NCBI GenBank assembly: GCA_023480925.1
Contig: JAMCWY010000022.1
Span: 1-32,000 of the forward strand
Length of the DNA stretch: 32,000 nt
Reading direction: 5' to 3'
Source: Patescibacteria group bacterium
Lineage (GTDB): Bacteria > Patescibacteriota > Minisyncoccia > UBA6257 > HR35
Below the pieces are notes generated by a model. It did not search any database. It saw nothing but the letters and a program-made list of their open reading frames with translations, and was not told where the DNA came from. Made by a program: the position numbers and the translations under genes. This document shows positions 10,350 through 32,000 of this stretch, piece by piece; position 1 is the first letter of the stretch; the number at the start of each line of letters is the position of its first letter.

Positions 10350-10983
10350 ACAACTCCTTGAGCTTTTCGGAGTCTTTAGTGGATTAATTTACGAAAACAC
10401 CAACTCGTCGATCTTCCGCTTAATCGTTTTCACCATAGCCATCGCCACGAGCTTGGCCGGATTTTACTACTGGTACGTTTTGGAAAAAAAATACGAGTGG
10501 AGTAGGTGGTTGTGGGGAAACCTTTTTCGTTTCTTTAGCCAGGCTCGAATCGACTTCAATGATTTTAAAAAAGATTGGATTAATTTAAAAAAACCTTTCT
10601 TGGTCAATCCGCTTAAATCGGTCATCGACGCAGAAAAATTTTTCGATCAAGTTTTCGATCTTTACGGCTATCTCGGCAAAAGCCTAACCGAACAAATCGG
10701 TCAAGCCTCACTCTTAACTCTGCCGCGTCGCGAACGACTCCAAAAAACCGTCGCGATTGTCGAAGCGATTAAGTTGCGAATCAAAACCGGCGGAAAAATC
10801 GACCTAAGTAAAAAAGAAATTCTAACTATTTTAGAAGAATTTGAAAATAATCTTTTCGACCTCTTAGTTATCGGCGAAACTGAACGTTGGGTCAAAAATC
10901 AAATCGCCGAGTTTAACCACTATCGCGATCACAATAACGCCACCAAACCAACCAACAACCAAGCAAGTAATTTTAAATCTTAA
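10336..10983 (+). CDS. Hypothetical membrane-anchored protein
   Basis: The 215-aa ORF overlaps the gatA end by 14 nt. It has one or two N-terminal hydrophobic helices followed by a charged helical region. No family is recognised. Confidence 0.5.
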   Translation: MPIIKQLLELFGVFSGLIYENTNSSIFRLIVFTIAIATSLAGFYYWYVLEKKYEWSRWLWGNLFRFFSQARIDFNDFKKDWINLKKPFLVNPLKSVIDAEKFFDQVFDLYGYLGKSLTEQIGQASLLTLPRRERLQKTVAIVEAIKLRIKTGGKIDLSKKEILTILEEFENNLFDLLVIGETERWVKNQIAEFNHYRDHNNATKPTNNQASNFKS

Positions 10984-12600: not shown

Positions 12601-12843
12601 TTAGGGGCTTGTCGGGGTTTTGACAAAACTTATGACAATCGCGGGGATGGCATTGGCTAAAAACAAAAGGGCTAAACCGGTCAGAACGATCATTAGGGCC
12701 TTACTTAAACCGCTCCAATTTCTGGCTTTGACTGAATAAGTCAGATTAATGCCCAACCAAACCAAAATAACAACCGCGCCGGCCAGACTAATAAGAAAAA
12801 TAAAATTTTTAATCCTGATTAAAATATCAATCGCGTTAGCCAT
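12601..12843 (-). CDS. Small two-helix membrane protein, possibly VirB2/T4SS-pilin-like
   Basis: The 80-aa ORF has two hydrophobic helices (FIFLISLAGAVVILVWLGINL and ALMIVLTGLALLFLANAIPAIVISF) separated by a short polar loop. This architecture resembles the pilin-like module of ORF 23320-24342. The functional call is weak. Confidence 0.4.
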   Translation of the reverse strand: MANAIDILIRIKNFIFLISLAGAVVILVWLGINLTYSVKARNWSGLSKALMIVLTGLALLFLANAIPAIVISFVKTPTSP

Positions 12844-17946: not shown

Positions 17947-18112
17947 CGATTAGACTAATTTCTTTAAAAACCAAATTATCAAACTTGCCTTTAAGATAAA
18001 TATTGTCGCCCTTAAATTGGATCTTTAGTTCAAGTTTTGGATATCTTGATTTTATCTCCTCGACGCACCTTAAAATTCTTGGTTTAAAAAAAAATGGTTT
18101 TATTAAAGCCAT
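17897..18112 (-). CDS. Small hypothetical protein coupled to dnaN (possibly a minimal DUF721/DciA-like protein)
   Basis: The 71-aa ORF starts in a TAATG overlap with the dnaN stop (18110-18114). Its 3' end overlaps the convergent PBP gene by 50 nt. Resemblance to DUF721 is limited to position after dnaN and one beta-rich segment (KIQFKGDNIYLKGKFDNLVFKEISLIV). Confidence 0.4.
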   Translation of the reverse strand: MALIKPFFFKPRILRCVEEIKSRYPKLELKIQFKGDNIYLKGKFDNLVFKEISLIVKNYFPESQIFSQLET

Positions 18113-19242
18113 TAAAGCGGCATTAAAACATAAAGAAAATCATCATCGATTGGCGATTTAATCAAGATTGGCTTAGGGCTACCCTGATCGGAAAAATTAA
18201 ACCCGATCAAAACTTTCTCAGTCGAAACCGATTCCAAGCCGTCTCTAAAAAAGTCGACGTTAATTGAGATGTTAAAGTTTTCATTCTCCATTAGTGTGTT
18301 TTCTTTTATCTCCGTCTCGATTAAATTTTTTGACTCGCCCAACAGGTCGTTTTTTGAATAAAGTTCAATTTTTTTTATTTTAGGCGTAATCGTTAATTTT
18401 ATTTCTTTATTTTGATCGACAAAAATTTTATTCAGCTTCAATTTTTCATCAATCTCGTCTCGATTAACCAAACAAATTAATGAAAAAATTTCCGGCAGAA
18501 TCTGTTGATAGTTAGGATACTCGACCGCCGTCACTTTAGTAATTAAACTCTGGTCGCCCAAGTCAAAAACGACCTGATCTTCTTCAAGGCAAATTTTTGT
18601 CTCTCGGGGTTTTTCTTTTACACTTAAATATTCTTGAATAATTTTTTTGGGTATTAATATTTTTTTTGATTTTATGTTTGTTTTAAAAAAACTCGATTTT
18701 AATTTGACCTCAGCCAAACGGATCGTGTCTGTCGTCACTAATTTTAATAAATCGTGTTCCAACCATAAATAAACGCCATCAAATTCAGGTTTAAAAATAT
18801 CGGCGGTTCGAAGAGGCGCCATCACCCTGATCAAAAAATCCGCGAATAAAACAGAATCAATTTCAATAAACTTATCCGAGTTGAAGTTTTGGTTGATGGG
18901 ATAGTCTTCGTGGCTTAAGGTGGGCAAACTTGAAAAACTTTCGCGACCTTTTATGATAATAGTGCTGTTATTAACTTCCAATTCAACCTCTTCTTCAAAA
19001 AAATTACTAATAATCGCGAAAAATTGTTTGGCCGGAATTAAAACTTCGCCGGTTTTAACCACATCAGCTTTTAATTTGGCTTGATAGGAAATTTCAAGAT
19101 CAGTCGCGTTAATTTGGATTGTATTATTTTCCGCTTTTAAGCGAAAGAAATTAAGTATTTCCAAGTCGCCCTTTTTTCCAGTGATACGATTGACGATTTC
19201 AATCAAATTTTTTAATTTGTTCTTATTAACTTTTAGATTCAT
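18112..19242 (-). CDS. dnaN: DNA polymerase III beta sliding clamp
   Basis: The 376-aa ORF has a typical DnaN N-terminus (..L...I..V.R....K..L.IL..F.L.A....I.I.ATDLEIS). It has three-domain length and sits directly downstream of dnaA. Confidence 0.93.
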   Translation of the reverse strand: MNLKVNKNKLKNLIEIVNRITGKKGDLEILNFFRLKAENNTIQINATDLEISYQAKLKADVVKTGEVLIPAKQFFAIISNFFEEEVELEVNNSTIIIKGRESFSSLPTLSHEDYPINQNFNSDKFIEIDSVLFADFLIRVMAPLRTADIFKPEFDGVYLWLEHDLLKLVTTDTIRLAEVKLKSSFFKTNIKSKKILIPKKIIQEYLSVKEKPRETKICLEEDQVVFDLGDQSLITKVTAVEYPNYQQILPEIFSLICLVNRDEIDEKLKLNKIFVDQNKEIKLTITPKIKKIELYSKNDLLGESKNLIETEIKENTLMENENFNISINVDFFRDGLESVSTEKVLIGFNFSDQGSPKPILIKSPIDDDFLYVLMPL

Positions 19243-19386
19243 TTATTATTTAATAATACTTTATTAATATAAATAATAATTATAGACGCTGTGAATATGG
19301 GGATAATATTAAAACTATTTAAATGTTAGTTAAATTTATTTTTTAGTTTTTAAAACATCTATAAATCGGGTTGATAAGGTGTTTAA
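19243..19386. other. Candidate oriC segment (dnaA-dnaN spacer: AT-rich stretch plus degenerate DnaA boxes)
   Basis: The 144-nt spacer has a nearly pure A/T stretch at 19243-19284. Box-like 9-mers are TGTGAATAT (19290-19298, 2 mismatches to TGTGGATAA), TGGGGATAA (19298-19306, 1 mismatch) and GGTTGATAA (19369-19377, 2 mismatches). No perfect box is seen. Confidence 0.3.
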
Positions 19387-20757
19387 TTATAATTCTAAAA
19401 TCTTTGTCCTCAAGATTTCCACTTCTTGGCTAAGTTCGATATTGGTGTTAAGTTCTTTAACGATTTTTTCGCAAGAATAAATAATTGTGGTGTGATCGCG
19501 ATTACTTAAAACTTCGCCGATCGAAACGTAAGACATCTTGCCCAGGTCGCGCAAAAGGTACATAACAACCTGGCGAGGTTTAATAATATTAACCTTTCTT
19601 GATTTCTTCAACATGTCTGTTTCTTGAATATTGTAAAAATCGGAGACGATCTTGATAATCTTTTGCGGAGTAATTTTTCGATAAAGTTGCGTCAGATAAT
19701 CCTTTAAAATCTCGTTGATTCGTTCTTCGGTGATTGTTTCAATTTTTTTCTCTTTAATAACATAAACGACTAAATTTAACGCTCCTTCCAGTTCTCTGAT
19801 ATTCCGATTTATTTTTTTCGCGATTAGTTCAAGTATCTCGTTGTCCAAAAGAAAGCCCTTTTCTTGGCACTTTATTTTGAGAATAGCCAATCTTGTTTCA
19901 AGGTCGGGCGTGGTGATGTCTATAATTAGGCCGCCTTCAAATCGGGATCGAAGCCTTTGTTCGATGTCGGGGATTAAGGCCGGCGGCCGATCAGAAGAGA
20001 AGACAATTTGTTTCGAGGCGTTGTAGATGAAATTAAAGGTATGAAAAAGTTCTTCTTGTGACTTGGTTTTGCCTGAAAAAAACTGGGTGTCGTCAACGAT
20101 TAAAAAATCAAGGCCTCGAAATTTCAACTTAAACTCGTCAATCGAGTTGTTTTTAAGCGAATCAATTAGTTCGTTCGTGAACTGTTCGCTTGTGATATAT
20201 TTAACCTTTTTGTCTTTGTGGTTTTTTAAAATTTCATTGCCGATTGATTGAAGCAAATGAGTTTTACCCAAACCCACTCCGCCATAGATAAAGAGAGGAT
20301 TAACTTTGGCCGAGGAGTCGTTGACAATGCCTTGGGCGGCGGCAAAGGCCAATTCATTATTCCCGCCCACGACGAAATTATCAAAGCGATAACGATGATT
20401 AAGATTGGTTGAAGGATCAGCCTCAAAGAGGCTGGTTTTTTTGTAATAACTAAAAGTTTTTTGGGATTGGCTAATTTTGGTCGTGGTTTTAAGCCGTTCC
20501 TCGATTAAAACATAATCGATTTTTTCCAACTCGGGGATAAAACTTTTGGCCGCCTTTAAAAGAGTGTAATGAAGTTTTTGCTCAACCCAAAACTTAACCA
20601 TCTTATTGGGTACGTTTAACTTTAAAACACCGTCGCTAAAGCTAACCGGTCGAATTTCACTGAACCAAGTTTTAATTGTTGGCCGGCTCGTCTGTCCCCC
20701 TAGTTCATTAATCGTCTTGTTCCAAATTTCATTTAAACTTGCTTCGGTTATGTCCAT
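19387..20757 (-). CDS. dnaA: Chromosomal replication initiator DnaA
   Basis: The 456-aa ORF has AAA+ Walker A GGVGLGKTHLLQSIGNE and Walker B LIVDDTQF. A sensor/box VII region is present. The domain IV HTH is present (..KPRQVVMYLLRDL...SIGEVL.NRDHTTIIYSCEKI). Confidence 0.97.
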   Translation of the reverse strand: MDITEASLNEIWNKTINELGGQTSRPTIKTWFSEIRPVSFSDGVLKLNVPNKMVKFWVEQKLHYTLLKAAKSFIPELEKIDYVLIEERLKTTTKISQSQKTFSYYKKTSLFEADPSTNLNHRYRFDNFVVGGNNELAFAAAQGIVNDSSAKVNPLFIYGGVGLGKTHLLQSIGNEILKNHKDKKVKYITSEQFTNELIDSLKNNSIDEFKLKFRGLDFLIVDDTQFFSGKTKSQEELFHTFNFIYNASKQIVFSSDRPPALIPDIEQRLRSRFEGGLIIDITTPDLETRLAILKIKCQEKGFLLDNEILELIAKKINRNIRELEGALNLVVYVIKEKKIETITEERINEILKDYLTQLYRKITPQKIIKIVSDFYNIQETDMLKKSRKVNIIKPRQVVMYLLRDLGKMSYVSIGEVLSNRDHTTIIYSCEKIVKELNTNIELSQEVEILRTKILEL

Positions 20758-20833
20758 GCTAAAATTTTATTACATTTTATTATATAATATCAATAAGGTT
20801 AAAAATTAAAATAATCGATCGGATAAATTTAAA

Positions 20834-20950
20834 ATGACCAAAAAGAAAAGAAAAAGAAAGGTTGGTTTTCTGGTTCGATCAAGGAAAAAGAACGGTCGAA
20901 ATATCTTAAAATCAAGGCGTCAAAAAAAGAGAAAAAAGATTAGTTCGTGA
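20834..20950 (+). CDS. rpmH: 50S ribosomal protein L34
   Basis: This ORF is not in the ORF track because it is only 38 aa. Hand translation gives MTKKKRKRKVGFLVRSRKKNGRNILKSRRQKKRKKISS. This matches the L34 pattern KRKR..GFR.R...K.GR.IL..RR.KGRK.L. It is divergent from dnaA, and its stop overlaps the rnpA start (GTGA). Confidence 0.85.
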   Translation: MTKKKRKRKVGFLVRSRKKNGRNILKSRRQKKRKKISS

Positions 20951-21276
20951 TGTTGGCGAGAAAATTTTGTCTCAGCCGCTCGGACCGGCTTAAGTTTGAT
21001 CGCGGCTCGGAATCAGATCGAGGTAATTTTTTTAAAATTTACAGCCGCGCCAATAGTTTAAACCACGCTCGCTTCGCCGTTCAAATCAAAAAAAACCTAA
21101 TTAAAAAATCAGTTGATCGGAATAAGCTCAAAAGAAAAATTAAACAAATTTTGGAATTAGGAATTAAAAAAAACACCATTACTTCAAACCGCGACTATCT
21201 TATTTTGGCGAAAAATAACCCGATCGGATTAAGTTTCAGCCAACTCAAAGAAATTTTTACCAATGAACTTTTTTAA
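20947..21276 (+). CDS. rnpA: Ribonuclease P protein component
   Basis: The 109-aa basic protein has the RNR motif region (KKSVDRNKLKRKIKQIL). It holds the conserved rpmH-rnpA-yidC position. The start is GTG 20947 or ATG 20950. Confidence 0.85.
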   Translation: MMLARKFCLSRSDRLKFDRGSESDRGNFFKIYSRANSLNHARFAVQIKKNLIKKSVDRNKLKRKIKQILELGIKKNTITSNRDYLILAKNNPIGLSFSQLKEIFTNELF

Positions 21277-21910
21277 TCTGGTTTTAATCAACCCGCTCTT
21301 GAATTTACTTTTAAATATTTTTTCCTTGACTCATGATTTTGGTTGGGCGATAATTTTGACCACGGTTCTTTTAAAATTTTTTTTGCTGCCGTTCGCTTAT
21401 TTGGCCCATCGCGAAGAAGGCCGAGTTAGGCAGGTCAGCCAAAGAGTCAACCGCGAAACAAAGGGAATAAAAGATATGATTGAAAAATCAAAAATCATTC
21501 AAAATGTTTACGCGGAAGAAAAATTTAATCCGATGAAAAATTTTGGCGTCCAAATAATCCAGCTGCCGATTTTTATCGGGTTTATCGCCGCGCTCAACCG
21601 GGCGAAATTAATAATTGCCAATCCGTTTTTCCTTGGTCTGATCGATTTGCGTCTAGTTAATTTTTATTTGGCCCTGCTTGCTTTTTTGCTTCAATTTCTT
21701 CTGATTTTTAGCCAACCGGCCGAGGGTCGCAAAATTGCTTTTATTGTTTTGTTTTTTATTGGTTTGATTCTTTTCCGTCTGCCGGCGATATTCACCGTTT
21801 ACTGGCTGGCCCTTTCAATTTTTATTCTCTTAGAGCGAAAAATTTTTCATTGGCATGAAGTAAAGTTTGCGGTCAAGCCGGTTAGTGAAAAAGAGGCCAG
21901 CCTGAGTTAG
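21263..21910 (+). CDS. yidC: YidC/Oxa1-family membrane insertase (short form)
   Basis: The 215-aa ORF has the N-terminal pattern ..FGWAIILTTVLLKFFLLPF.., followed by an amphipathic charged hairpin and further TM helices. It follows rnpA with a 14-nt overlap. Confidence 0.88.
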   Translation: MNFFNLVLINPLLNLLLNIFSLTHDFGWAIILTTVLLKFFLLPFAYLAHREEGRVRQVSQRVNRETKGIKDMIEKSKIIQNVYAEEKFNPMKNFGVQIIQLPIFIGFIAALNRAKLIIANPFFLGLIDLRLVNFYLALLAFLLQFLLIFSQPAEGRKIAFIVLFFIGLILFRLPAIFTVYWLALSIFILLERKIFHWHEVKFAVKPVSEKEASLS

Positions 21911-22981
21911 CTGCGGCTTGAGGACATCATAATTACCGTTTAAATCAATGGTTTTTTCCTTATTGTCATTTGGGTTGTAAATAAAGATCTTGTCGGTAAA
22001 AGACTTTTTTAATTGAAGCCAGTTCTCGGGTAGGCCGGTTAGGTTTTGGTTGGTTGGGACGCCACAAACAAGATACTGCTCAAACGAACACTTGGAGTCG
22101 GCGAAGGTGCCGAAGTTGAAAGCTTTTTGAATCTTGCCACCAAAATCAATTAGATTAGAGATCCAACTTGATTGGCTGAAATAACTAATAAAAATTAAAT
22201 TGGAATTTTTTTGGCCGATCGCGGTTAAGCCCGGTTCGGCTTGAAAAATTTCTTTAATTAGAGATTGACTGGGGTCATAGAGGAACAGAGGCGAGGCCCG
22301 GCCAGTTTGAGGCTTGTCGTAAAAAATGACCTCTTGGCCGTCGGGACTAAAGAATTCAGGTTCAAGTAAGGAAAAGTTAAAAAGTTTTTTTTCAACGCCT
22401 TGGCGGTTAAGCTCGGCGATATAATTGATATTACCTTCATTGGAAACGTAATAAAGGGGAAGATTACCGATCCAGCCGGCCGCTCGGGTCAATAAATTGA
22501 GTTTAGTTAGGTTGTCGGCGGTGATATCCAAAACGAAGTAATGGTCAATGACGCCGCGGCTACTTTTGATTAGTAAGCTTTGTTTGTCCGGCGACAGACT
22601 TAGAAAACTAATATTGGGATCATCGTAAAGTTGCTGGAAGGTTTTATGTTCAAGATCAAAAGCGGTGACGGTTTTCGATTGATAATCGTAGGCGTAAATT
22701 TTTGGATAGTCAATTTTGGCAAAACCAAGAGGTTCTTGAAAAACTGGTCCAATCGCGCCGACCGCCGGCGCGGTCGTGGCATTAATTGTGTTTATTGGGG
22801 TTGATTTAAAGTTTGGCCCTAGTTCGTTGTTGGAAATCTTATAGACTTTTTGACCAGTGCCATTGATTTGATAAGATGTTTGAATCGGCGGTTTTTTTAT
22901 TATCTCTTCAACCATTAAAAAAGTAAAAGTGATCAAAATAATCGCGCCGAAGACAATAAAGACGTTCTTGATTTTTCTCAT
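21830..22981 (-). CDS. Membrane-anchored PD40/TolB-like beta-propeller repeat protein (last gene of T4SS-like operon)
   Basis: The 383-aa ORF has an N-terminal anchor (VFIVFGAIILITFTFLMV). PD40-like repeat signatures are present (LSLSPDKQSLLI; FFSPDGQEVIFYD..SPLFLYD). Its start overlaps the upstream ORF's stop (ATGA 22978-22981). Confidence 0.6.
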   Translation of the reverse strand: MRKIKNVFIVFGAIILITFTFLMVEEIIKKPPIQTSYQINGTGQKVYKISNNELGPNFKSTPINTINATTAPAVGAIGPVFQEPLGFAKIDYPKIYAYDYQSKTVTAFDLEHKTFQQLYDDPNISFLSLSPDKQSLLIKSSRGVIDHYFVLDITADNLTKLNLLTRAAGWIGNLPLYYVSNEGNINYIAELNRQGVEKKLFNFSLLEPEFFSPDGQEVIFYDKPQTGRASPLFLYDPSQSLIKEIFQAEPGLTAIGQKNSNLIFISYFSQSSWISNLIDFGGKIQKAFNFGTFADSKCSFEQYLVCGVPTNQNLTGLPENWLQLKKSFTDKIFIYNPNDNKEKTIDLNGNYDVLKPQLTQAGLFFTNRLDRKLYFMPMKNFSL

Positions 22982-23310
22982 CGTTGTTTTGAATTATAAA
23001 AATAAATCGAGCCAAAAATAAGACCAATCACAACTAGGCCGACAATAAATTCAATTATAAGGTTAATAAAAATTTTTTTCCCGCCGACGCGGTTTTGATT
23101 TTGGTCGGGTTGACGGGAGGACGAAGAATTTTGATTGGCGGTTACGACTTGGCCCGAAGGCAGAAGCAGGGGTTTGATCGCGGCCGAGCTTGAGCCGGTT
23201 CGAGGCGTGGCCGGCTTGACTAAGTTTTGGCCAAAAGAAAATTTTACTGGGTTGGTCAAAACTAAGAAAATTATCAGGCCGACTAAAAATAAAAATTTAT
23301 TTTTTGGCAT
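22978..23310 (-). CDS. Small bitopic protein (N-terminal signal/anchor, Ser/Gln-rich linker, C-terminal TM helix)
   Basis: The 110-aa ORF lies 9 nt downstream of the pilin-3D gene and overlaps the next gene by ATGA. No family is recognised. Confidence 0.5.
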   Translation of the reverse strand: MPKNKFLFLVGLIIFLVLTNPVKFSFGQNLVKPATPRTGSSSAAIKPLLLPSGQVVTANQNSSSSRQPDQNQNRVGGKKIFINLIIEFIVGLVVIGLIFGSIYFYNSKQR

Positions 23311-23319
23311 TATTTTTTA

Positions 23320-24342
23320 CTAATTACAATTGTTCATTGTTTGGTCATAAGTTGAGTATGTCGTCACTACAACCGCGGCCGTGTTAATGGCGGCGTACTG
23401 TCTAAACGCGTCTTTGCCAACGCCAACATAAAGATCAATATGATTACCGTTAATGCCGCCACCTCGGTCTGTGCCGCAAAACACGCCGTATCTTTGGTTG
23501 TTTATATACATAACGACTTTTGAGGGTAACCACTCGGTTGGCACAGCCACAGTTTTGCCGGAGATAAGGACGTGGCCTTCGGCGTCAAGTGGTTGAGAAA
23601 TTTCTTGAAAACTAGAGTTGATATAACGGCCTTGTTTGCCTTGACAAATAAGGCCGTTGCCTTGGTCGCAATAGCCGGTGCCTTGCATCTGGACGTCTGC
23701 TTTAAAAGAGTTTTCGCTTTGAGCCTGACTTTCGAGAGGAACATAATAACGGGTGACTTGAACTGGAATGCGTTGGCCGGTGTTTGGCGAACTAGCTTGG
23801 CCACTAGTAACAGGGGCGTTGGCGGCGAAACTGTTTTTGCCCGTGACAAATGTTTGACCGTCAACGGTAACGAAGCCGGGTATATCGATATTTTGGACTC
23901 GGTAAAGAAGAAGATCGGCGTTAAAAATTTGAGGGTTGATCCAATAGAGAACCGAGCCGCTGAGAAAAATTACGATTAAACCAAAGACGGCGTTCTTGAT
24001 TTTTTCCTTGCCGGCGGCCTTTAGGTTGACGGTTGAACTAAGCATGTATTCAAACGCGCCAACGATGACAAAGATAAAGGCGAGAGCGACAGCGATAACG
24101 GCGATCAGGTTGTAAACCGCTTGGAGGCAGCCCTGAAGACTAAAGGGATTATTGTTGGTTTGGTTTGAAATTGGGCATTCGGTTTGGAAATAACTGAACG
24201 GCGAAGCGAGATTGTTAAGGGGGGCGGCGAAAGAAATTATCGGTAAAGTCAAAATAAAAATTAAAACAAGGATCAAGTTAAGATTGCCCAGCCGGAATTT
24301 TTTATTAAAGTTTTTTCCCGAATAAAATTTTTTTAAACTCAT
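23320..24342 (-). CDS. Fusion protein: T4SS-pilin-like (VirB2-like) TM hairpin plus C-terminal 3D/MltA-like cell-wall lytic domain
   Basis: The 340-aa ORF has a signal/anchor. A two-helix module follows (AVYNLIAVIAVALAFIFVIVGAFEYMLSS..KAAGKEKIKNAVFGLIVIFLSGSVLYWINP), typical of small T4SS pilin-like proteins. The C-terminus carries a 3D-domain-like signature (..VTRYYVP..MQGTG..GKTVAVP...GVFCGTDRGGGINGNHIDLYVG). Confidence 0.7.
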   Translation of the reverse strand: MSLKKFYSGKNFNKKFRLGNLNLILVLIFILTLPIISFAAPLNNLASPFSYFQTECPISNQTNNNPFSLQGCLQAVYNLIAVIAVALAFIFVIVGAFEYMLSSTVNLKAAGKEKIKNAVFGLIVIFLSGSVLYWINPQIFNADLLLYRVQNIDIPGFVTVDGQTFVTGKNSFAANAPVTSGQASSPNTGQRIPVQVTRYYVPLESQAQSENSFKADVQMQGTGYCDQGNGLICQGKQGRYINSSFQEISQPLDAEGHVLISGKTVAVPTEWLPSKVVMYINNQRYGVFCGTDRGGGINGNHIDLYVGVGKDAFRQYAAINTAAVVVTTYSTYDQTMNNCN

Positions 24343-25031
24343 TAAATCGTTAATTTGGTCGAGGCGCTTTGGTTTGGTTGATTTTGATTTTGGATAATCA
24401 ACTCAAGCTCGTTTTGAGCGCCTAAGCCCATATCGGGATTTAATTGGATTGACCAAGCGTTTGAAAAAATTCTGTTATTTTCTGCCCAGAAATAATCCAG
24501 CAAAGGCGAAGAAAAATTAAAAGCCAGGCCGGTTAAGTTGTCATTTGATTGAAGCTGACGCGCGGGCAGATAAAAGTTAGAGCCGGGTTCGAACTTAACG
24601 ATCGTAACGCTTGGTTGGGGGACGTTAATGTCAATCGGTTCGGTTAAAGTTAATTTGAAATCTTTTGAGACAAGTTTGACCGCACCAGTGATAACGCTAA
24701 TATTGGCGTCGCCTAGGGGCAGCCTTAAAAATGGCAAAGTAGTTTGTTCACTGAGCGCGAGATTCGTTTGAGCATTCCAGGTGTAGTTAAAATCTTGGGC
24801 GGAGTAGATTCGGCCGCCTTGACTGATTTGAACCTCAGCTCCAAGAATAATCGAGTCGCCAACTTTTTTACTTGAGAGATAAAAATAATTTTGGTTCGAT
24901 TGGGCTTGGCTAAAATTAATATCAATAAGACCAAGAATGCAGATAAGTCCAAGCACCAAGACTAATTTTCGCGGGTTAAATTTTGAAATCATTTTTAATC
25001 GAGTTGTTTTTAATTTTTGATCTTTAATCAT
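24342..25031 (-). CDS. Secreted or membrane-anchored beta-rich protein of unknown function (candidate VirB8/PrgL-position protein)
   Basis: The ORF track gives 24342-25175, but that N-terminal extension overlaps the upstream gene by 152 nt. The Met at 25031 (MIKDQKLK..) lies in an ATGATTAA overlap with the upstream stop. It precedes an anchor (LVLVLGLICILGLIDINFSQA), and Met 24992 is an alternative start. The stop overlaps the next start (TAATG). Confidence 0.6.
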   Translation of the reverse strand: MIKDQKLKTTRLKMISKFNPRKLVLVLGLICILGLIDINFSQAQSNQNYFYLSSKKVGDSIILGAEVQISQGGRIYSAQDFNYTWNAQTNLALSEQTTLPFLRLPLGDANISVITGAVKLVSKDFKLTLTEPIDINVPQPSVTIVKFEPGSNFYLPARQLQSNDNLTGLAFNFSSPLLDYFWAENNRIFSNAWSIQLNPDMGLGAQNELELIIQNQNQPNQSASTKLTI

Positions 25032-25572
25032 CGCTGATAGTCGGGCCGGCGATTTCTTGGCTTGGTCTAGAAATGACTTCGCCATTATCCTGGCCGGTTG
25101 TTTCAAAATGAGAAGCGATTTTTGGCCAAAGAAAAAATAAAAATATAACACTGATCGTTTCAAGGGGGAGAACACTTACGATTGTGCCGATGATTGGCAA
25201 TTCATCGGCGACAACCTCGCCGCCCGTGACGAGTCGGGTGATAATCGAAATATTCCGGCGGGCTCGATTAAGTTGGCTCTTGCCGCCGCTGAATTCGGGT
25301 CGGTAACTTAAATAAAGAAACAGGCCGAAATAAATTAAACGGAAAACTCCCAAGATTAATCTGATAATCCAGCCAACCAGACCTCCCGTGGGAATGTCAA
25401 GGATGTCGGCGATAATGTCGACTAAGTCAAGCCAAATCGCCAAACCCAAAAGAGAAAAAAGCAAAAAGTAAGTCGGGCCGCTTCGGCTGTCCCCCGGCTC
25501 GGCCTGGCTGGAATCGTTCAAGTCGGTTGGGCCGGTTATTTTTTGTGTTTCCGGTTCGGAAATTATTTCCAT
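25024..25572 (-). CDS. Polytopic membrane protein of unknown function in T4SS-like operon
   Basis: The 182-aa ORF has an acidic N-terminus followed by about 4 hydrophobic helices. It starts 1 nt after the VirB4 stop. No family is recognised. Confidence 0.6.
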   Translation of the reverse strand: MEIISEPETQKITGPTDLNDSSQAEPGDSRSGPTYFLLFSLLGLAIWLDLVDIIADILDIPTGGLVGWIIRLILGVFRLIYFGLFLYLSYRPEFSGGKSQLNRARRNISIITRLVTGGEVVADELPIIGTIVSVLPLETISVIFLFFLWPKIASHFETTGQDNGEVISRPSQEIAGPTISDD

Positions 25573-25573
25573 T

Positions 25574-27394
25574 TTATAAGCCTTTGTCCGCCGCGGCTTT
25601 TTTTAGAGCCATTAATTGTTCTAAGTCGGAACGAATAATCTGATCTTCGGCGTATGAACCGAGGATGTAAATCGGGACGCGCTTAAGGCCGGCGACGATA
25701 ATGCCGCGGCCGCGTTCGGCCTGAAGGAGAAAATTTTTTTCGCCCTCAGATAAAGCGAAAACTTGGCCAATTAGGTCGATCGTCGCCGGCGATTGTTTCA
25801 TCAAAAAAACCAGGGCCGAGTTGGTAATAATCGGTTTGCCGAAAGACGAGCTAAGAAAGTCCTCGACGTCTTGAGTAATATTGGTGACGCCCAGAAGATA
25901 TTTTCGGCCGCGCTTAATCACGTTCAAAAGAAACTCGCCGCCGGCTTTTTGTTTCATAATCCACCAGGCTTCATCGATGATGATGACCCGTCGCCGGACG
26001 TCGCGTCGGGCTCGATTCATAATAAAAGAAAGAGTCAGGTACATGCCGATTGGCCGAAGTTGTTCGACCAGATCGCGAAAGCCAAAAACAATCAAGCGCC
26101 GGTCCAGCTCAACGTTGGTGGGTTTGTTGATAAAACCGGAGAAGTTGCCTTGGGTGTAAGGATAAATTCGGTCGGCTATTTTTTCGCCGCCCTCGACGTT
26201 CCGGAGTATTTTTTCGAAGTCGTCGAGAGTCGGGAAGATATCGATTTTACTAATGTCGCTTTCGGGCAAAATATTAAACGAGGCGTAGGTTTGGGTTAGG
26301 GCCCGATCGATAATCGTCAGCTCTTCTGAATCGAGATCTTTTTCTGTGATGATTTGGATCAAACCAACCAGATCGGAAATTTTTTCTTTAAAGACTCCAA
26401 CCGGATCTTCATCCGCCAAAGGCAAAGAAAGATCGAATGGGTTGATGTGAAGATCGGATTTGAGCGAGACGGGGATAAAGCTGCCGGCGTAAATTTCAGC
26501 GATTGAACGGTACTCGTCTTCAGGATCGAGAATAATCGTGTCGGTGCCAAGGACCAGATTTCGCATTACTTCAAGTTTGGCCATGTAAGATTTGCCCGAA
26601 CCCGATCGGGCAAAAACAACCATGTGAGCGTTTTCAAAAGCGAAGCGGTCAAAAATAACCAGGCTGCTGTCTTGGAGATTGATGCCGAATAAAACACCTT
26701 GTTCCATTGAGAGTTCGGAGGAGATGAAAGGGAAAAAAGAAGAAGCGGGAGATGAGTTGAGTTGATAGCGGAGACTAATCTCGTCTAAGCCGAGCGGCGT
26801 GGTCGAGATAAACCCGGATTCTTGTTGAAAAAGAACAGTCTTGGGCAGTATCAGAGCGCTTTCAAGGATTTTTATCACTTGTTTTTCTTTAATGACAAGA
26901 TCGTCTTTAGTCTCGGCTAAAATCGTTAAATAAAGGCCAACCTCGAACATTTTCTCGCGCGCCTGGATCAGGGCGTCTCGAAGCGATTCGATGTCTTGGT
27001 AAGCGGTTTCGAGTTCGGGCGAGCGAACTAACCCACGCTCGACTCTTTCTTGAATTTGACCTTCGACTCGGGCAAGTTGTTTTTCGAATCTTTTCAAGAG
27101 CGCCGGTGTTTCTAAGGGGAAGAAAAAAAGAGAAAGATTAAAGGCTTCTTCAAGGGAAATAATGTTTTCAAGCCAACCAGCCAAAAGATAGCGAGGATAA
27201 GTCAAGATAAAAATCGTTTTGCCGAAAATGTCGCCGATTTGAAAATCGGAAAGATTAAAAATCGCGCCTGCCGGCGAAATTATTTCTTTAATATTCTCAA
27301 AGCCGGATGATTCTTTGACCGTTGGAATGACCAAGACTGGCTTATTCGGCTCGACCGCGCTTTTAAATTTCGGCAACTTTAAATTTAGCTTCAT
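25574..27394 (-). CDS. virB4: VirB4/TrbE/PrgJ-family T4SS ATPase, main part (middle domain plus ATPase domain)
   Basis: The 606-aa ORF has Walker A VVFARSGSGKSY and Walker B VIIIDEAWWIM (the DEAW typical of VirB4). The motif GVTNITQDVEDF is present. The pre-ATPase region carries the family pattern YPRYLLAGWLENI. Confidence 0.9.
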   Translation of the reverse strand: MKLNLKLPKFKSAVEPNKPVLVIPTVKESSGFENIKEIISPAGAIFNLSDFQIGDIFGKTIFILTYPRYLLAGWLENIISLEEAFNLSLFFFPLETPALLKRFEKQLARVEGQIQERVERGLVRSPELETAYQDIESLRDALIQAREKMFEVGLYLTILAETKDDLVIKEKQVIKILESALILPKTVLFQQESGFISTTPLGLDEISLRYQLNSSPASSFFPFISSELSMEQGVLFGINLQDSSLVIFDRFAFENAHMVVFARSGSGKSYMAKLEVMRNLVLGTDTIILDPEDEYRSIAEIYAGSFIPVSLKSDLHINPFDLSLPLADEDPVGVFKEKISDLVGLIQIITEKDLDSEELTIIDRALTQTYASFNILPESDISKIDIFPTLDDFEKILRNVEGGEKIADRIYPYTQGNFSGFINKPTNVELDRRLIVFGFRDLVEQLRPIGMYLTLSFIMNRARRDVRRRVIIIDEAWWIMKQKAGGEFLLNVIKRGRKYLLGVTNITQDVEDFLSSSFGKPIITNSALVFLMKQSPATIDLIGQVFALSEGEKNFLLQAERGRGIIVAGLKRVPIYILGSYAEDQIIRSDLEQLMALKKAAADKGL

Positions 27395-28023
27395 TTATAA
27401 TTTAACGTTGTCTGGCTTAATTGTTCAAAAAGTTGGATCGGCGCCAAACCCCAACGCAGGCTTGGGTTGTATGTTTCGAAAAGCAGTTGAATCAGCTCCG
27501 AAGTTTGAAGACGGATCGGCTGAAGACCAATGATGGAAAGTTTTTCGGAAAGGTAAACGATTCTGGTTTCAAGTTGTTCGAGTTTTTCTTCGTAGCGCTC
27601 TTCTTTGCTCGAATCGTTTTTGCGCAACTTGCTCATGTCTAAATTTGACTCGTAGGGGACGACCAGATAAAACATTTTTTTCATAATTTTGTGGTTTTCG
27701 ATATAACCGGCGAGAAATTCGATGTACTCTTGGAGTTGAAGCCGGATCAGCGGTTCTTTTTCGTTTTCCAAAACCGACTTAAGGTAGTTGAGATAATTTT
27801 CAATATTAGCCAAGCGCGAGACGGTTAAAATTTGAAGGGGAAAGTCAATGCCGTTTAGAAGATTTTTAAACTGGTCAATCACCAACTCTTTTTCTTTCTC
27901 GGCTAAGAGATAAAAATTTATTCCGGGCACCATTAAAACCGCCCGGAGACTACCGTTCGTTAAGATCATCGTATCGTCGCGAACATCCGCGACTTTAATC
28001 AAATTAAATGTCGGTTTTACCAT
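27391..28023 (-). CDS. virB4: VirB4/PrgJ N-terminal domain encoded as a separate ORF
   Basis: The 210-aa ORF follows the N-terminal pattern of full-length Gram-positive-type VirB4 proteins as I recall it. This includes I.V..VRDDTMILTNGSLRAVLMVPGINFYLLAEKEKELVIDQFKNLLNGIDFPLQIL, then ..FYLVVPY.. and ..LQTSELIQLLFETYNP. Its stop overlaps the start of the ATPase ORF (ATGA 27391-27394). Confidence 0.75.
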   Translation of the reverse strand: MVKPTFNLIKVADVRDDTMILTNGSLRAVLMVPGINFYLLAEKEKELVIDQFKNLLNGIDFPLQILTVSRLANIENYLNYLKSVLENEKEPLIRLQLQEYIEFLAGYIENHKIMKKMFYLVVPYESNLDMSKLRKNDSSKEERYEEKLEQLETRIVYLSEKLSIIGLQPIRLQTSELIQLLFETYNPSLRWGLAPIQLFEQLSQTTLNYK

Positions 28024-28661
28024 CGTCTTTTTGGAAATTTTGGTAAAGGAAAATTTTTATATGGATTATAGTTATTTAGGGTTGGTTGGAGCTTTTTGAC
28101 GACACTAATCAGGGGCTGGTTATTTATTCGGGTTTGGACCGGCGTCGCCGGTGCTGGCGGTTGAATTTTTATTTCTGGCTTCGGCGCGATTTGTTTTTCC
28201 GGGCCAAGCCATGGCGTTTCTTTGATTGTCGGAATCGGTTCGGCCGAGCTGATGGGCGGCGGCGGTGTTTTTGGTTTTCTAATTAATAATTGTTCCGTTG
28301 TCTCGATCTGTTTTTCTCCTGTGGGCGGTTCTTTTAAATATTTTTCCAATTCAGGCAACTCAATCGTTTTATTGACAATCTTGGTCATCGATTGCCAGAC
28401 ATATTTTCGGTTTGAACCAAAGAAGTAAAAAAGCGAAGGTAGCGACGATAGGACCGGTTTGCCGTTAAGATTAATGAAGCCCAGGGCGACAGCCAGACCA
28501 AACGAGATTATAACGATTATGAGTTCGATTAAACCGCCGACAACTTTGCTGCCGATATAACTGATAATAAAGGCGGCCAAAAATAAAAAGAGTTGTTTAA
28601 ACGTGACTAAGCCCATTAGCTTGTCTTCGACGCCGATGTATTGAGGAACGCTCGATCTCAT
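28017..28661 (-). CDS. PrgI/VirB3-like T4SS membrane protein with Pro-rich C-terminal extension
   Basis: The 214-aa ORF has an N-terminus (VPQYIGVEDKLMGLVTFKQLFLFLAAFIISYIG.. plus a second TM helix and ..YVW). This matches the PrgI-family pattern (P..I...E.K+.G.LT.RQL). It sits immediately upstream of VirB4, as in known T4SS loci, with a 7-nt overlap. Confidence 0.7.
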   Translation of the reverse strand: MRSSVPQYIGVEDKLMGLVTFKQLFLFLAAFIISYIGSKVVGGLIELIIVIISFGLAVALGFINLNGKPVLSSLPSLFYFFGSNRKYVWQSMTKIVNKTIELPELEKYLKEPPTGEKQIETTEQLLIRKPKTPPPPISSAEPIPTIKETPWLGPEKQIAPKPEIKIQPPAPATPVQTRINNQPLISVVKKLQPTLNNYNPYKNFPLPKFPKRRW

Positions 28662-28673
28662 TTTTAAATCTAA

Positions 28674-29540
28674 TTATAAATTAGAAAGATCGATCACGGC
28701 GCGATCTTTTTTTCCCGGTTCGGCCTTTTTAATGATGATTTTGGGGCCAAGATTGGATGAGTCTGACGATTGGTTTGGGCTTGGCGCGTTGGCTGGTTGG
28801 GTTGAACTTGGTTGGTTCGTCGGCCATTTAATCTCCTTAACGTTGACAAAGGTTGAATTTGAATCAGGCCGGTCGGCGTCTTTTAATTTAAGGTTAGTTG
28901 GTTCGGCCGGAATTTCCAAAATATTTTTTCCCAAAGGGTTAAAATTTTGATCCGCGCTCATCGGTTTCGGCGTCGCGCTCGTCGTCATCGGCTGGCTTTC
29001 TATTTTGATTGGTTCGGGTGGCTTGGCGATTGGTTCGGCCGGCGCTTGAAATGGTTCGCTTCCGTCGTCAAGAGAAGTTTGCTTTGGCGCCGCGGCGACA
29101 ACTCGGTTTTGGTTTAAATTCGGCGCGGCGCGATTAAGATTAATCACGGGAGAGTTCATTCTGGGCGTTTCTTGTTTCTTAATTTCGTCCAAGAGGGCTT
29201 GAATGTCGCTTTGTTTTTCCGCTTCGACTTGTTCGTTCCAGCTTTCCCACCTTTTTTTAATTAAAGGCAAAAAGCGGCTGAAAATAAAATGGCCGAGTCC
29301 GGATGCTTGCTCTTGATCGAAATTTAATCTTGATTTTATTTCAGCCACGATCGTGTTAATCGAGTCCGCCTCAATCGCTTTGACCGCGATGTCTCGGAGA
29401 AGAAAATCCAAAGCGATCTCGTTTTCTTCCAACTCAAACTTTTTCGCGTACTCGTCCAAGAAAGAAAAATAATTTTCCGAGTTGAGAAAATTCTTTATGC
29501 TTTCCGGCGCCTGGTTGTATTTTTCAAAAAAGTTTAACAT
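28674..29540 (-). CDS. Hypothetical protein: helical N-domain plus long Pro/Ser/Asn-rich tail
   Basis: The 288-aa ORF has no TM helix that I can see. Residues ~130-288 are low complexity (APKQTS.., PAEPIAKPPEPIKIESQP.., PSSTQPANAPSPNQSSDSS). It lies between the VirB6-like and PrgI-like genes with 23-nt and 12-nt gaps. Confidence 0.6.
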   Translation of the reverse strand: MLNFFEKYNQAPESIKNFLNSENYFSFLDEYAKKFELEENEIALDFLLRDIAVKAIEADSINTIVAEIKSRLNFDQEQASGLGHFIFSRFLPLIKKRWESWNEQVEAEKQSDIQALLDEIKKQETPRMNSPVINLNRAAPNLNQNRVVAAAPKQTSLDDGSEPFQAPAEPIAKPPEPIKIESQPMTTSATPKPMSADQNFNPLGKNILEIPAEPTNLKLKDADRPDSNSTFVNVKEIKWPTNQPSSTQPANAPSPNQSSDSSNLGPKIIIKKAEPGKKDRAVIDLSNL

Positions 29541-29563
29541 TAAAATAATTATGGGTTTAGCGG

Positions 29564-31663
29564 TTAATCTCTAAAATTAAGACCCAAACCATTGAGCGAA
29601 TACGGATTTCCACTATTATCTTTGACGTTTCCGATAATTGAATCAATGTGATTGGCTAATTCGTCGCGCGTGTTTTTGTCAGTTATATTTTTTCGAATTT
29701 CTTCGACAATGTCTTGGTTATTCTGGATCGCCGCCAGAGAATTAAGGGCGGCCGAGGCTTTATTTTGACTTTTCTGGTTACCCTGTTCAATTAAGGCAAT
29801 GGTCGCGGCTAATGTTTCTCCCGATGTTCCTTTAGCGGTCATCAAAGCGTTTAACTCGGGCGTTGCGACAAACCCGCGGTTGAAGAAACGGTCGTCGGTG
29901 AATCCAAGATTCTTGGCTATATTAAAGTGATCAAGGCGGCTGCCGAACTCCATTTTTTGGTTAGCCGGCATTTTCAGCCATGCGTCTGAGAGGATCTGGT
30001 TCGTACTTGTTCCCTTTGGTCCGCCCCACCCAGCGGTTTCGCTGGTTTGGCTTACGATTGGTTCAAGTTGATCCCAGCCGCCGGCGGAAGAGATGTTAAT
30101 TTTGGCCAAAGCCGCGATCATGCTTTCTTTGTCCGGAGAGTTAAAGCCTCGCCATTTTTTCGCCAAAACCGCTCTAAGTTTTTCATCTTTAAGGCTATCT
30201 TTGATGCCGGGTATGCCCGAGATATTTCTAACCCAATCTTCCGTGTCCCAATCAATGTCGGTGGATTGGAGAAAATTTTTGAGCACGCCGTAATTTTTGT
30301 CTTGAATTAAACTTGACATTGTTTCTTTAACCTTATCCGGGTTACCGCTGGTTTTTTCAACCAGAGCCTTACCCCGTATCTCTTCGCGTTCTTTTTTCGG
30401 TTTAAGTAACGATTCGGAAAGACTTTCAAGTTGTTTGGAAAACTTGGCCGTGCCGGCGATACCGGACGCGCCCATAGTCGTACTCCAATCTTTTAATTTA
30501 GAACCCATTTTTTCTCGGACTGGCGACATTGCCTTTTGGCTTGTCCATTTGATTCCGCCACCGATAACGTTGGCCCAAACTGTTCGAGCGGCGGTCATGC
30601 CGCCACCGGCGAACTTACCCGCCCAATCAATAGCGAAAATGATGGCGAAGCCGTAGTAAATAGCAATAAAGATAAAACGAAAAACGGTCATTAAAATATA
30701 TGGGCCAATGGCAAAGCTCGAACCGAGTAAGCCGCCGTTGACGCCGCTGCCGGCGCCTTGTTGGGCCGGCGCGACAAACGTGTTGTAAAAATCGCCTGTG
30801 GCTCCGCCAACACCGTTGGCGGAGCCGGTTGTGATCGGTTGGGTAAAGGCGGTTGAGATAAGACTGAAACCAACCAGAATCATTAATAATAGTATCGCTG
30901 GCAGAGCCGACCATTTTAAGAAAGATTGAATTGTTTGGTTCAGATGGTTGCTGTTTTTCCCGAACGCGGTTGAGACGATCGCGAGTGGCAGGAATCCAAC
31001 CAAAAGAGCAATAAAGATAAATCGACCGACAAAAATGCCGGCGAAGATAAACATAAAAGCGGTCCAAAGAAAAGAAAGAGCCAAACCGGCCAACTCAAAA
31101 GCAAGGTCGGGTACAACCCGCAATGTTTGGTTGGAAATATTGGCTGCGACACCTTGGGTCGCCTGTTCGGTTAACTGGCTGGGTGAGAAGTGAGAAAGGC
31201 TGGCAAAAATGGCTGTGCCGACATAATGGCAGTTATTAACGTCACTGCTGTTGGCGGGAGTGAAGAGACAGGCAAGCGAGTAGGTGATTGAGTTGAAGAT
31301 ATTAAATATTTCTTCGGCGAAAAAGAAAGAGAAGTTGATTAAGAGCGCGATTAAAATTAAGACAAAAATTTTCTTGCGCGCTTCTTCGCCGTGGTTAATA
31401 ATAAAAAGAATGCCGATATAGAGGCTGGCGAAAATAATGCCGAGATAGGCAATGTTTTTAAAAATTTTCCAAACCTGGGACGCGAAGTTTAGATCGGAAA
31501 AAGGATTGGCAACAGCAAAGGCATTGATCAAAAGCGCGGCCAGCCGGCCCAATATTTGGAAGAGAAAAGTGGTGATAGTATTCAAAATACCCAGAAACCA
31601 GATCAAGATTCCACCATACGTGTTGACGTTTATATTAAACAGATAAGATATAAATGAATCCAT
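29564..31663 (-). CDS. VirB6/TrbL-like polytopic membrane protein with ~300-aa C-terminal soluble domain
   Basis: In the 699-aa ORF, the first ~390 aa contain about 8 hydrophobic helices with a Gly-rich loop (GSANGVGGATGDF..GAGSGVNGGLLG). The position upstream of the VirB3-like and VirB4 genes matches VirB6/PrgH placement. The assignment rests on topology and synteny, not on a sequence motif. Confidence 0.55.
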   Translation of the reverse strand: MDSFISYLFNINVNTYGGILIWFLGILNTITTFLFQILGRLAALLINAFAVANPFSDLNFASQVWKIFKNIAYLGIIFASLYIGILFIINHGEEARKKIFVLILIALLINFSFFFAEEIFNIFNSITYSLACLFTPANSSDVNNCHYVGTAIFASLSHFSPSQLTEQATQGVAANISNQTLRVVPDLAFELAGLALSFLWTAFMFIFAGIFVGRFIFIALLVGFLPLAIVSTAFGKNSNHLNQTIQSFLKWSALPAILLLMILVGFSLISTAFTQPITTGSANGVGGATGDFYNTFVAPAQQGAGSGVNGGLLGSSFAIGPYILMTVFRFIFIAIYYGFAIIFAIDWAGKFAGGGMTAARTVWANVIGGGIKWTSQKAMSPVREKMGSKLKDWSTTMGASGIAGTAKFSKQLESLSESLLKPKKEREEIRGKALVEKTSGNPDKVKETMSSLIQDKNYGVLKNFLQSTDIDWDTEDWVRNISGIPGIKDSLKDEKLRAVLAKKWRGFNSPDKESMIAALAKINISSAGGWDQLEPIVSQTSETAGWGGPKGTSTNQILSDAWLKMPANQKMEFGSRLDHFNIAKNLGFTDDRFFNRGFVATPELNALMTAKGTSGETLAATIALIEQGNQKSQNKASAALNSLAAIQNNQDIVEEIRKNITDKNTRDELANHIDSIIGNVKDNSGNPYSLNGLGLNFRD

Positions 31664-31665
31664 GA

Positions 31666-32000
31666 TTAAATTTGAATTTTATTTGGACTGAATAAATTAA
31701 AAATATTCGCGACCAACCCGCCGGCTAACTTAAACGGCAGTTCAACCAAACCAAGAAGATGATCAAGAAATCCGCGGCCAGCGATTGTCGTTTGATTTTT
31801 ACTCCCATTGATATTAACCGCGACCGGTGGGCTGGTGGTAAAATCGTGAATTTCAGTGTTTAAGAACATAATGGCGCTTCTCAGGCTTGGGTCGCTTACT
31901 TTCGTTTCAAGATCATTTAGGCTTTTTTCAAGTGCTTGAATTTGCTGATTGATGTTGTCTAAATTAAAGTTGGTTTGGTCAATGTGGAGGTTGGTCAAGT
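31666..32000 (-). CDS. Hypothetical protein, 5'-partial (frame open to window end)
   Basis: The ORF stops 2 nt before the VirB6-like start. It has a coiled-coil-like N-part (NINQQIQALEKSLNDLETKV) and a hydrophobic or amphipathic C-terminus (FLDHLLGLVELPFKLAGGLVANIF). The listed TTG start at 31998 is probably an artefact of the window edge. Confidence 0.45.
   Translation of the reverse strand, partial: LTNLHIDQTNFNLDNINQQIQALEKSLNDLETKVSDPSLRSAIMFLNTEIHDFTTSPPVAVNINGSKNQTTIAGRGFLDHLLGLVELPFKLAGGLVANIFNLFSPNKIQI

Follow-up and report, generated by a model that had tools for sequence, protein, structure and literature searches.

Type IV secretion systems of the Patescibacteria

The patescibacterial systems have been described, in a 2025 review, as newcomers to the superfamily of type IV secretion systems (T4SS) (PMC12857230). 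In a survey of 3,035 Patescibacteria genomes, Quinonero-Coronel et al. 2025 (Microb Genom) found that the VirB4 proteins form a monophyletic clade nested in MPF_FATA (PMC12102498). TrsD was observed to be the most abundant accessory component, and PrgI, VirB6 and VirB2-like pilins were located near virB4. Relaxases were present in 103 of the 3,035 genomes, and homologues of the VirD4-like type IV coupling protein (T4CP) in 2,918, mostly distant from virB4. In the Paceibacteria and Microgenomatia, the T4SS lies close to dnaA, dnaN, rnpA and rpmH (PMC12102498). The present work deals with a T4SS operon at positions 21830-32000 of a 32,000-nucleotide (nt) stretch of DNA from a Patescibacteria group bacterium (GenBank assembly GCA_023480925.1, contig JAMCWY010000022.1); this whole stretch is referred to as the window.

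Another such system is that of Southlakia epibionticum. Using transposon sequencing (Tn-seq), Wang et al. 2023 (Cell) found its T4SS cluster, SEML1_0006-0019, to be essential for epibiotic growth; the cluster resembles Gram-positive conjugative systems and has pilins, with no recognisable T4CP or relaxase (PMC10633639). The functions proposed for such systems are effector delivery or nucleic-acid uptake (PMC11665869; 2026 preprint). The T4SS has been put forward as a route of nucleotide acquisition, comEC being dispensable in S. epibionticum (PMC11665869). Further, the 2026 preprint describes tubular structures, possibly T4SS pili, at a parasite-host interface and ties the conservation of VirB4 to feeding on host RNA.

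Judged by its profile matches, the locus in the window is a T4SS core operon descended from monoderm (MPF_FATA) conjugation machinery, and it belongs, with high confidence, to the patescibacterial T4SS. It is a new example of an already described system and adds no new principle. The original prediction, made from the DNA letters, had called the composition of such loci unresolved; it had in fact been described in 2023 (PMC10633639) and 2025 (PMC12102498). Its speculation on function (host contact, exchange or uptake) matches the question that is currently open. The components it had named, i.e., a VirB6/TrbL-like protein, a PrgI/VirB3-like protein, VirB4 in two pieces and a pilin hairpin with a 3D domain, were all confirmed by profile searches. 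The relationship to VirB3, VirB4 and VirB6, on which that prediction depended, holds.

The translocon genes

The products of the operon are numbered g01 to g11 in the order of transcription (Table 1). For comparison, the best 80 VirB4 hits in a species-level genome collection were taken as relatives. The two closest, L083 and L003, served as proxies for the DNA beyond position 32000; exact matches to the window's proteins were Logan contigs of 2-5 kb, and a 50-nt pattern from the window's end had no exact match among JGI metagenome contigs.

Table 1. Genes of the T4SS operon and other features of the window
Feature	Position	Strand	Description
g01	31666-32000	-	C-terminal ~110 aa of a ~1000-aa coiled-coil-rich protein
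g02	29564-31663	-	Extended VirB6/TrbL-like polytopic membrane protein (predicted)
g03	28674-29540	-	Soluble accessory protein, no known family
g04	28017-28661	-	PrgI/TcpE (VirB3-like), two transmembrane helices and Pro-rich tail
g05	27391-28023	-	TrsD/TraD-like, detached VirB4 N-terminal part
g06	25574-27394	-	VirB4 ATPase, 606-aa C-terminal part with P-loop domain
g07	25024-25572	-	Small membrane protein with three transmembrane helices (transmembrane scan)
g08	24342-25031	-	Exported/anchored, tandem immunoglobulin (Ig)-like beta-sandwich domains (predicted)
g09	23320-24342	-	VirB2-like pilin hairpin fused to 3D (YuiC/MltA-like) domain
g10	22978-23310	-	Small bitopic protein with a signal/anchor at the N-terminus, a low-complexity middle part and a transmembrane helix at the C-terminus
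g11	21830-22981	-	Membrane-anchored TolB/PD40-like beta-propeller (predicted), last operon gene
yidC	21263-21910	+	Downstream of operon
rnpA	20947-21276	+	Downstream neighbour
rpmH	20834-20950	+	Downstream neighbour, 38 aa
dnaA	19387-20757	-	Origin-side neighbour
dnaN	18112-19242	-	Origin-side neighbour
PilC/T2SSF	2580-3860	-	Type IV pilus gene
PilB-type T2SSE ATPase, MshEN domain	3864-5570	-	Type IV pilus gene
PilB-type T2SSE ATPase, MshEN domain	14112-15785	-	Type IV pilus gene
N_methyl pilin	7082-7630	+	Type IV pilus gene

The product g06 scores 339 bits against NF045971, the CD1110-family VirB4 model (cut-off 325, E 4.6e-101), and matches Pfam P-loop_TraG at 1.4e-21. Other models score lower, with 143 bits for F-type TraC and 92 bits for VirB4_CagE. 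The Walker A (ARSGSGKS) and Walker B (VIIIDE) motifs are both intact. The nearest solved structure is PDB 4AG5, the VirB4 of the Firmicute Thermoanaerobacter (E 3.9e-32). On these matches, the VirB4 is of monoderm (MPF_FATA) affinity with an intact P-loop.

The gene just before it, g05, matches the TrsD model NF041427 at 5e-7, along with positions 105-278 of VirB4_plasma (1.1e-12) and positions 13-158 of VirB4_CagE; its precomputed Pfam label is TraC-like. As g06 covers positions 293-883 of VirB4_plasma, contiguous with those covered by g05, the two are a VirB4 split in two. It was considered whether this split could be a frameshift artefact. This was rejected, as the TrsD-like gene is an open reading frame (ORF) separate from virB4 in 77 of the 81 loci and such separation is normal in pGO1-type systems (PMC12102498).

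Directly upstream of TrsD-VirB4, a PrgI-like gene is present in 65-79 loci. In the window this gene is g04, with transmembrane helices at 15-33 and 45-63 (transmembrane scan). PrgI is matched by 46 of the 47 aligned members of its family (best 9.7e-12), and TcpE by 16. The largest of the translocon products, g02, has about six transmembrane helices in residues 1-340, after which comes a helical hydrophilic domain of ~360 aa. It has no Pfam or NCBIfam match itself. Its family is found in 52 loci, where TrbL is matched by 6 of 42 members (Pfam, best 1.9e-7) and TrbL_4 by 3 of 42. An AlphaFold2 model of g02, built from an 11-sequence alignment, reached a predicted local distance difference test (pLDDT) score of 58, and its three best Foldseek PDB matches were all R388 TrwI/VirB6 (prob 0.97-0.99, E 0.25-0.6). 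By way of its family members and this model, g02 is linked to VirB6 transitively, and its helices and C-terminal helical domain fit the ‘extended VirB6’ type. When the family profiles of g02, g03 and g07 were compared with PDB sequences, coiled-coil noise or nothing was obtained.

The pilin fused to a 3D domain

A leader and two helices make up residues ~1-137 of g09, and a 3D domain of the lytic-transglycosylase type occupies ~190-340. Both parts exceed their Pfam cut-offs, T4SS_pilin with 33.8 bits (cut-off 26.6) and 3D with 29.7 bits (cut-off 23.8). The C-terminal domain can be aligned with YuiC of B. subtilis and MltA of E. coli, and the motif TDxGxxIxGxxIDLY is retained as TDRGGGINGNHIDLY (D292, D303). 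It is the sole wall-lytic domain in the operon, where no SLT, muramidase or CHAP-type VirB1 hydrolase was found.

Among 46 positional homologues of g09, T4SS_pilin is matched by 39 and TrbC/VirB2 by 10, and a 3D score is obtained solely for the window protein; the homologues in L083 and L003 keep the 3D motif. A search of 1.84 billion representatives gave 37 relatives of the C-terminal domain at E <= 1e-3. Ten of these were scanned; P0030 and P0031 exceed the Pfam cut-offs for the two domains, and P0036 gives weaker matches to each. The pilin-3D fusion thus found is, as far as these searches indicate, a rare trait of this lineage. It is known that most VirB2-bearing genomes are devoid of VirB1 (PMC12102498). 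A hydrolase domain placed on a pilin-like subunit hints at one way in which the missing VirB1 role may be filled.

If g09 polymerised, wall-cutting 3D domains would cover the surface of the filament or channel, which, together with the propeller and Ig-like proteins, would form an undescribed extracellular module. This idea is speculative, and we regard it as unlikely. Such a polymer would amount to a pilus drilling through peptidoglycan, possibly that of the host.

Accessory products

The protein encoded by g08 has a single N-terminal hydrophobic helix (transmembrane scan). The profile of its family (A6) matches the Ig-like domains of phage T4 Hoc at E 2.9e-10; BiPBP_C is matched by 12 of 48 members and the Cadherin-like beta sandwich by 4 of 48, and two Trp of the alignment, W85 and W182, do not vary. 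The window protein joins this family at the level of alignment and position, not by phmmer. It was also considered as a VirB8-like (NTF2) component, a candidate rejected since the family is of the Ig-like beta-sandwich kind.

The last product, g11, belongs to a family present in 59 loci, whose profile (A2) matches TolB structures at E 1e-8 and whose distant relatives are PD40/TolB proteins. In the AlphaFold2 model of g11, residues 3-28 form a transmembrane helix and 29-87 a disordered linker, and the propeller spans 85-377 (pLDDT mostly 70-90). Through Foldseek, the model was matched with Lp49, TolB and prolyl-peptidase propellers at E ~1e-9. An invariant KC...C is present close to the C-terminus in this family.

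The original prediction had left at least five to six products nameless. Folds can now be proposed for two of them, g08 and g11, while the families of g01, g03 and g07 stay nameless. These fold labels, resting on profiles and a model, are a small addition to a known system. The main text of PMC12102498 makes no mention of a TolB-like propeller, a 3D domain, an Ig-like protein or the g03 and g07 families, and an accession search for the propeller and the 3D domain was negative in that part of its supplementary tables which was covered.

As for the nameless ones, g03 has a helical N-domain of ~100 aa, after which the chain is Pro-rich and disordered up to a short, conserved tip at the C-terminus. 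Its family occupies this position in 54 loci, and no Pfam, NCBIfam or PDB-profile match was obtained. In the family alignment (A3), DPYRE is the terminus of about 20 of the 42 members; others, including the clade of the window, carry a terminus of the V/I-D/N-L-S/R/K-N type (...IDLSNL). This C-terminal tip looks like a candidate short docking motif. Among 71 proteins compared, i.e., those encoded directly after virB4 in 70 loci along with the window's own, 52 belong to the g07 family, for which no consistent Pfam or PDB match was obtained. There is likewise no Pfam or NCBIfam match for g10. It has 110 aa as against the 210 aa of its orthologues (L083 16300-16932, L003 14071-14703), keeping solely their N- and C-terminal hydrophobic helices and being without the Cys-rich segment CNEN.CEP.E.NLCP.DC. 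Finally, g01 has no start inside the window; its frame reaches the edge without closing and runs on for 41 nt in Logan contig L001. It is collinear with residues 926-1020 of a 1025-aa protein of L083, encoded just upstream of the VirB6-like gene (E 3e-6). No Pfam family was found for the orthologues of g01 in L083 and L003.

Operon layout and boundaries

The region 21830-32000 consists of 11 ORFs, all on the minus strand. From g01 to g11, their recomputed junctions are +2, +23, +12, -7, -4 (ATGA), +1, -8, -1 (TAATG), +9 and -4 (ATGA) nt, identical with the strands, gaps and overlaps listed earlier. Scans for promoters and terminators, compared with shuffles, gave 22 vs 16.6 +/- 4.6 and 23 vs 16.6 +/- 4.7, respectively, and were uninformative on the transcription unit. 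The GC content of the operon resembles that of its flanks.

The locus had been described as an ‘eleven-gene’ and ‘minimal’ operon. Both terms turned out to be artefacts of the window edge, as the operons of L083 and L003 have 13 genes in the same direction. Both relatives have, upstream of the one for the VirB6-like protein, two further genes of this direction (L083 4249-8018, L003 1720-5684), which encode a membrane protein of 219-231 aa and a protein of 1025-1102 aa, neither with a known family. By comparison with these relatives, the full operon is one of ~13 genes, extending beyond the edge of the window. Proteins that contain TSP3 or PKD repeats are encoded at the corresponding upstream places in other Paceibacteria.

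At the other end, the 3' ends of g11 and yidC form a convergent overlap of 81 nt (21830-21910); L003 has one of 57 nt and L083 one of 144 nt. Such an overlap was rejected as a general conserved trait, because most other Paceibacteria have a minus-strand gene of ~145 aa between the two. In the genomes compared, the convergent overlap is specific to this lineage.

Conservation in relatives

VirB4 identity among the best 80 hits is 44-63%. Their record titles are those of Patescibacteria-group, uncultured or unclassified-bacterium metagenome-assembled genomes, mostly Paceibacterota/Parcubacteria, and none of these titles is from another phylum. In ~50 of the 80 loci, which is every one with enough flank, the same arrangement was observed: PrgI-TrsD-VirB4, followed after 4-6 kb by yidC, encoded on the other strand, and next by dnaA-dnaN. 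Absence or loss of synteny in relatives would have told against the original prediction; gene order and position are conserved in these ~50 genomes. As the order and the dnaA-side site recur in ~50 Paceibacteria loci, vertical inheritance at a fixed position is suggested.

The same data bear on the idea that the locus is a decayed, non-working remnant of a conjugative element once integrated beside the origin. Such decay would explain the lack of local transfer genes, a VirB4 in two ORFs and a g10 of half the length of its orthologues. However, the TrsD/VirB4 split occurs in 77 of 81 loci and is usual in pGO1-type systems, and Walker A and B are intact. The 11 ORFs are open and tightly packed, and their order and position are kept in ~50 species-level genomes at 44-63% VirB4 identity. 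Furthermore, there is no integrase and there are no att repeats, and the homologous cluster of S. epibionticum is essential (PMC10633639). A remnant is therefore considered extremely improbable.

Local absence of transfer and integration genes

In Pfam and NCBIfam scans of the 11 operon products and 20 other ORFs of the window, no relaxase, VirD4/FtsK-like ATPase, VirB11 or integrase was detected. No att-like repeats flank the operon in 18000-32000, where just short imperfect repeats of ~16-40 nt were found. These scans agree with what had been noted from the sequence at the outset. Two T2SSE ATPases of the window were considered as VirB11 and rejected, being of PilB length with an MshEN domain, and one of them adjoins PilC.

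It had been suggested that the DNA beyond 32000 be inspected, and this was done through L083 and L003. Upstream of the operon in these two relatives, neither a relaxase nor a coupling protein nor an integrase is encoded; DivIC and YraN lie there in the two genomes, as does LeuRS in L083, all of them housekeeping genes, with no signature of an integrative conjugative element. In other Paceibacteria, KsgA is the usual gene at this place. An integrative conjugative element was rejected on the lack of integrase and att repeats and on the class-wide synteny. The earlier statement that the locus lacks a coupling protein applies to the neighbourhood only, as VirD4-like genes lie far from virB4 in most Patescibacteria (PMC12102498).

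In another reading, the locus is a working conjugation system that has a distant coupling protein and relaxase and still exports DNA. T4CP homologues are present in the 2,918 genomes noted above, mostly far from virB4 (PMC12102498), ~35 kb of the genome was available here, and of the core MPF_FATA translocon every part but VirB8 was found. On the other hand, relaxases occur in 103 of 3,035 Patescibacteria genomes (PMC12102498). In S. epibionticum, the T4SS genes are essential but the distant T4CP is dispensable (PMC12102498). The position on the dnaA side is also fixed across the class, and the locus is not on a mobile element. Conjugation is hence judged very unlikely.

Proposed function

Because there is no relaxase or coupling protein at the locus, and because the homologous cluster of a Saccharibacterium is essential for epibiotic growth, a non-conjugative role is suggested. 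A role in host interaction, divided between export and import, seems rather probable. It is proposed that the split VirB4, docked on VirB3 and VirB6, would drive the pilin-like subunit to assemble into a short pilus or a channel across the wall. Local opening of the peptidoglycan, the task of VirB1 elsewhere, would fall to the fused 3D domain. The Ig-like and propeller proteins may make up the extracellular part in contact with the host cell, or lend it stability. The machine would then move proteins or host-derived macromolecules across the epibiont-host contact, not conjugating DNA.

Another possibility is an uptake machine for host DNA, RNA or nucleotides, like ComB or Ced, in a cell unable to make nucleotides. 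The VirB4 weakly matches the models of the DNA-import ATPases CedB (9.3e-13) and CedD (9.6e-6). The T4SS is, moreover, a candidate nucleotide route, with comEC dispensable (PMC11665869), and the 2026 preprint links VirB4 to host RNA. However, the Ced matches reflect the common VirB4 ATPase fold, by far the best match being the conjugative CD1110 family (339 bits), and no nuclease, DNA-binding or ComEC-like gene was detected in the operon by Pfam and NCBIfam scans. A dedicated uptake machine is thus thought rather unlikely.

Several points weigh against the assignment of the locus to a non-conjugative T4SS core. The link of g02 to VirB6 is transitive, as it has no match of its own, a pLDDT of 58 and Foldseek E >0.2. 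The PrgI score of g04 itself is 14.8 bits (E 0.043), under the Pfam cut-off of 27. Three Asp are the signature of the 3D domain, and in g09 the first has no Asp aligned with it, the hydrolase role being a predicted one. An NTF2/VirB8-like component had no sequence or profile match among the operon products. The contig at NCBI measures 34,985 bp, so a distant T4CP or relaxase may be present elsewhere in the genome, and distant VirD4-like genes are what PMC12102498 finds in most Patescibacteria. For this genome, the reading draws on sequence and on homologous systems.

To our knowledge, the patescibacterial T4SS is the sole T4SS known to be essential for the growth of its owner. It is a leading candidate for how ultra-small epibionts exploit their hosts. 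The present locus is a compact Paceibacteria example, which gives putative labels to two ‘grey’ genes (Ig-like and TolB-like propeller), and g01, g03 and g07 add three more conserved families without a name. Together with these labels, the rare pilin-hydrolase fusion may hint at how the missing VirB1 function is supplied.

Origin neighbourhood and the rest of the window

The chromosomal setting originally deduced from yidC-rnpA-rpmH and dnaA-dnaN agrees with the gene calls. The GC skew changes from negative to positive at ~19-21 kb, where the GC content goes down to 0.33-0.35. This sign change fits a replication origin at ~19-21 kb, and its assignment near dnaA is reasonable. E. coli-type DnaA boxes are not enriched in the scan (8 seen vs 5.5 expected). 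The operon lies on the lagging-strand side, where the GC skew of the plus strand is positive, and is read toward the origin, head-on with replication. This head-on orientation relative to yidC and dnaA is kept in ~50 relatives.

The type IV pilus genes are located on the other side of the origin from the T4SS. With these genes on the opposite side, both surface machines linked to the epibiotic lifestyle would flank oriC within 32 kb. Other genes of the window, as identified by Pfam and NCBIfam, encode a class II aminoacyl-tRNA synthetase, CorA, TrxR, a glutaredoxin, GatA, HtrA, a NifS-like enzyme and PBP1a. Three ORFs, at 5567-6274 (-), 10336-10983 (+) and 12601-12843 (-), encoding 235, 215 and 80 aa, matched no Pfam family at E <= 1e-4. 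Searches for RNA genes, with ARAGORN and at Rfam gathering thresholds, gave a single one, a tRNA-Leu (CAA) at 495-583.

Comparison with known systems

Two of the systems compared are ComB of H. pylori and the crenarchaeal Ced. Like the locus in the window, they are T4SS-derived, are without a relaxase and share a VirB4-type ATPase; their role is in uptake. The likeness is confined to VirB4, with weak matches to CedB and CedD, whereas the diderm VirB2-10 set of ComB and the CedA of Ced were not seen in the window.

The conjugation cores of the MPF_FATA type compared are trs of pGO1/pSK41 and prgH-prgL of pCF10. In pCF10, the order prgH-prgI-prgJ-prgK parallels that of the window, with a VirB6-like protein, a VirB3-like protein, VirB4 and a wall hydrolase (PMC12857230). 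In pGO1, a separate TrsD precedes the VirB4-type ATPase, as it does in the window. Overlapping genes for VirB3 and VirB4 are another feature that the window shares with these cores. Compared with pGO1/pSK41 and pCF10, the window is without a relaxase, oriT, T4CP, PrgB adhesin and NTF2-type VirB8 (PrgL/TraM) in the scans. The conjugation cores also carry an SLT, CHAP or muramidase hydrolase, in place of which the window has a 3D domain on a pilin hairpin. Furthermore, these Gram-positive systems are without a VirB2-like pilin, whereas the window has one, in a locus that is chromosomal and not mobile.

The cluster SEML1_0006-0019 of S. epibionticum is similarly chromosomal, with locus tags that begin at 0006, and shares the Gram-positive-like composition and the presence of pilins. 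Homologues of TrsD, PrgI and VirB6 are common to both and are essential in S. epibionticum, and no T4CP or relaxase is recognisable in either cluster. S. epibionticum, however, belongs to the class Saccharimonadia, and its cluster has an array of six pilins that diverge from one another, along with distinct genes for peptidase and lysozyme downstream of virB4; the window has one pilin-hydrolase fusion. Essentiality is a result for S. epibionticum.

A close counterpart is the T4SS of the Paceibacteria as described in PMC12102498. Both have an MPF_FATA VirB4, a separate TrsD upstream of it, PrgI/VirB3, VirB6 and a VirB2-like pilin. In both, there is no relaxase or T4CP nearby, and the site is beside dnaA, dnaN, rnpA and rpmH. 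One difference between them lies in the single pilin-domain gene of the window, which is fused to a 3D wall-lytic domain.

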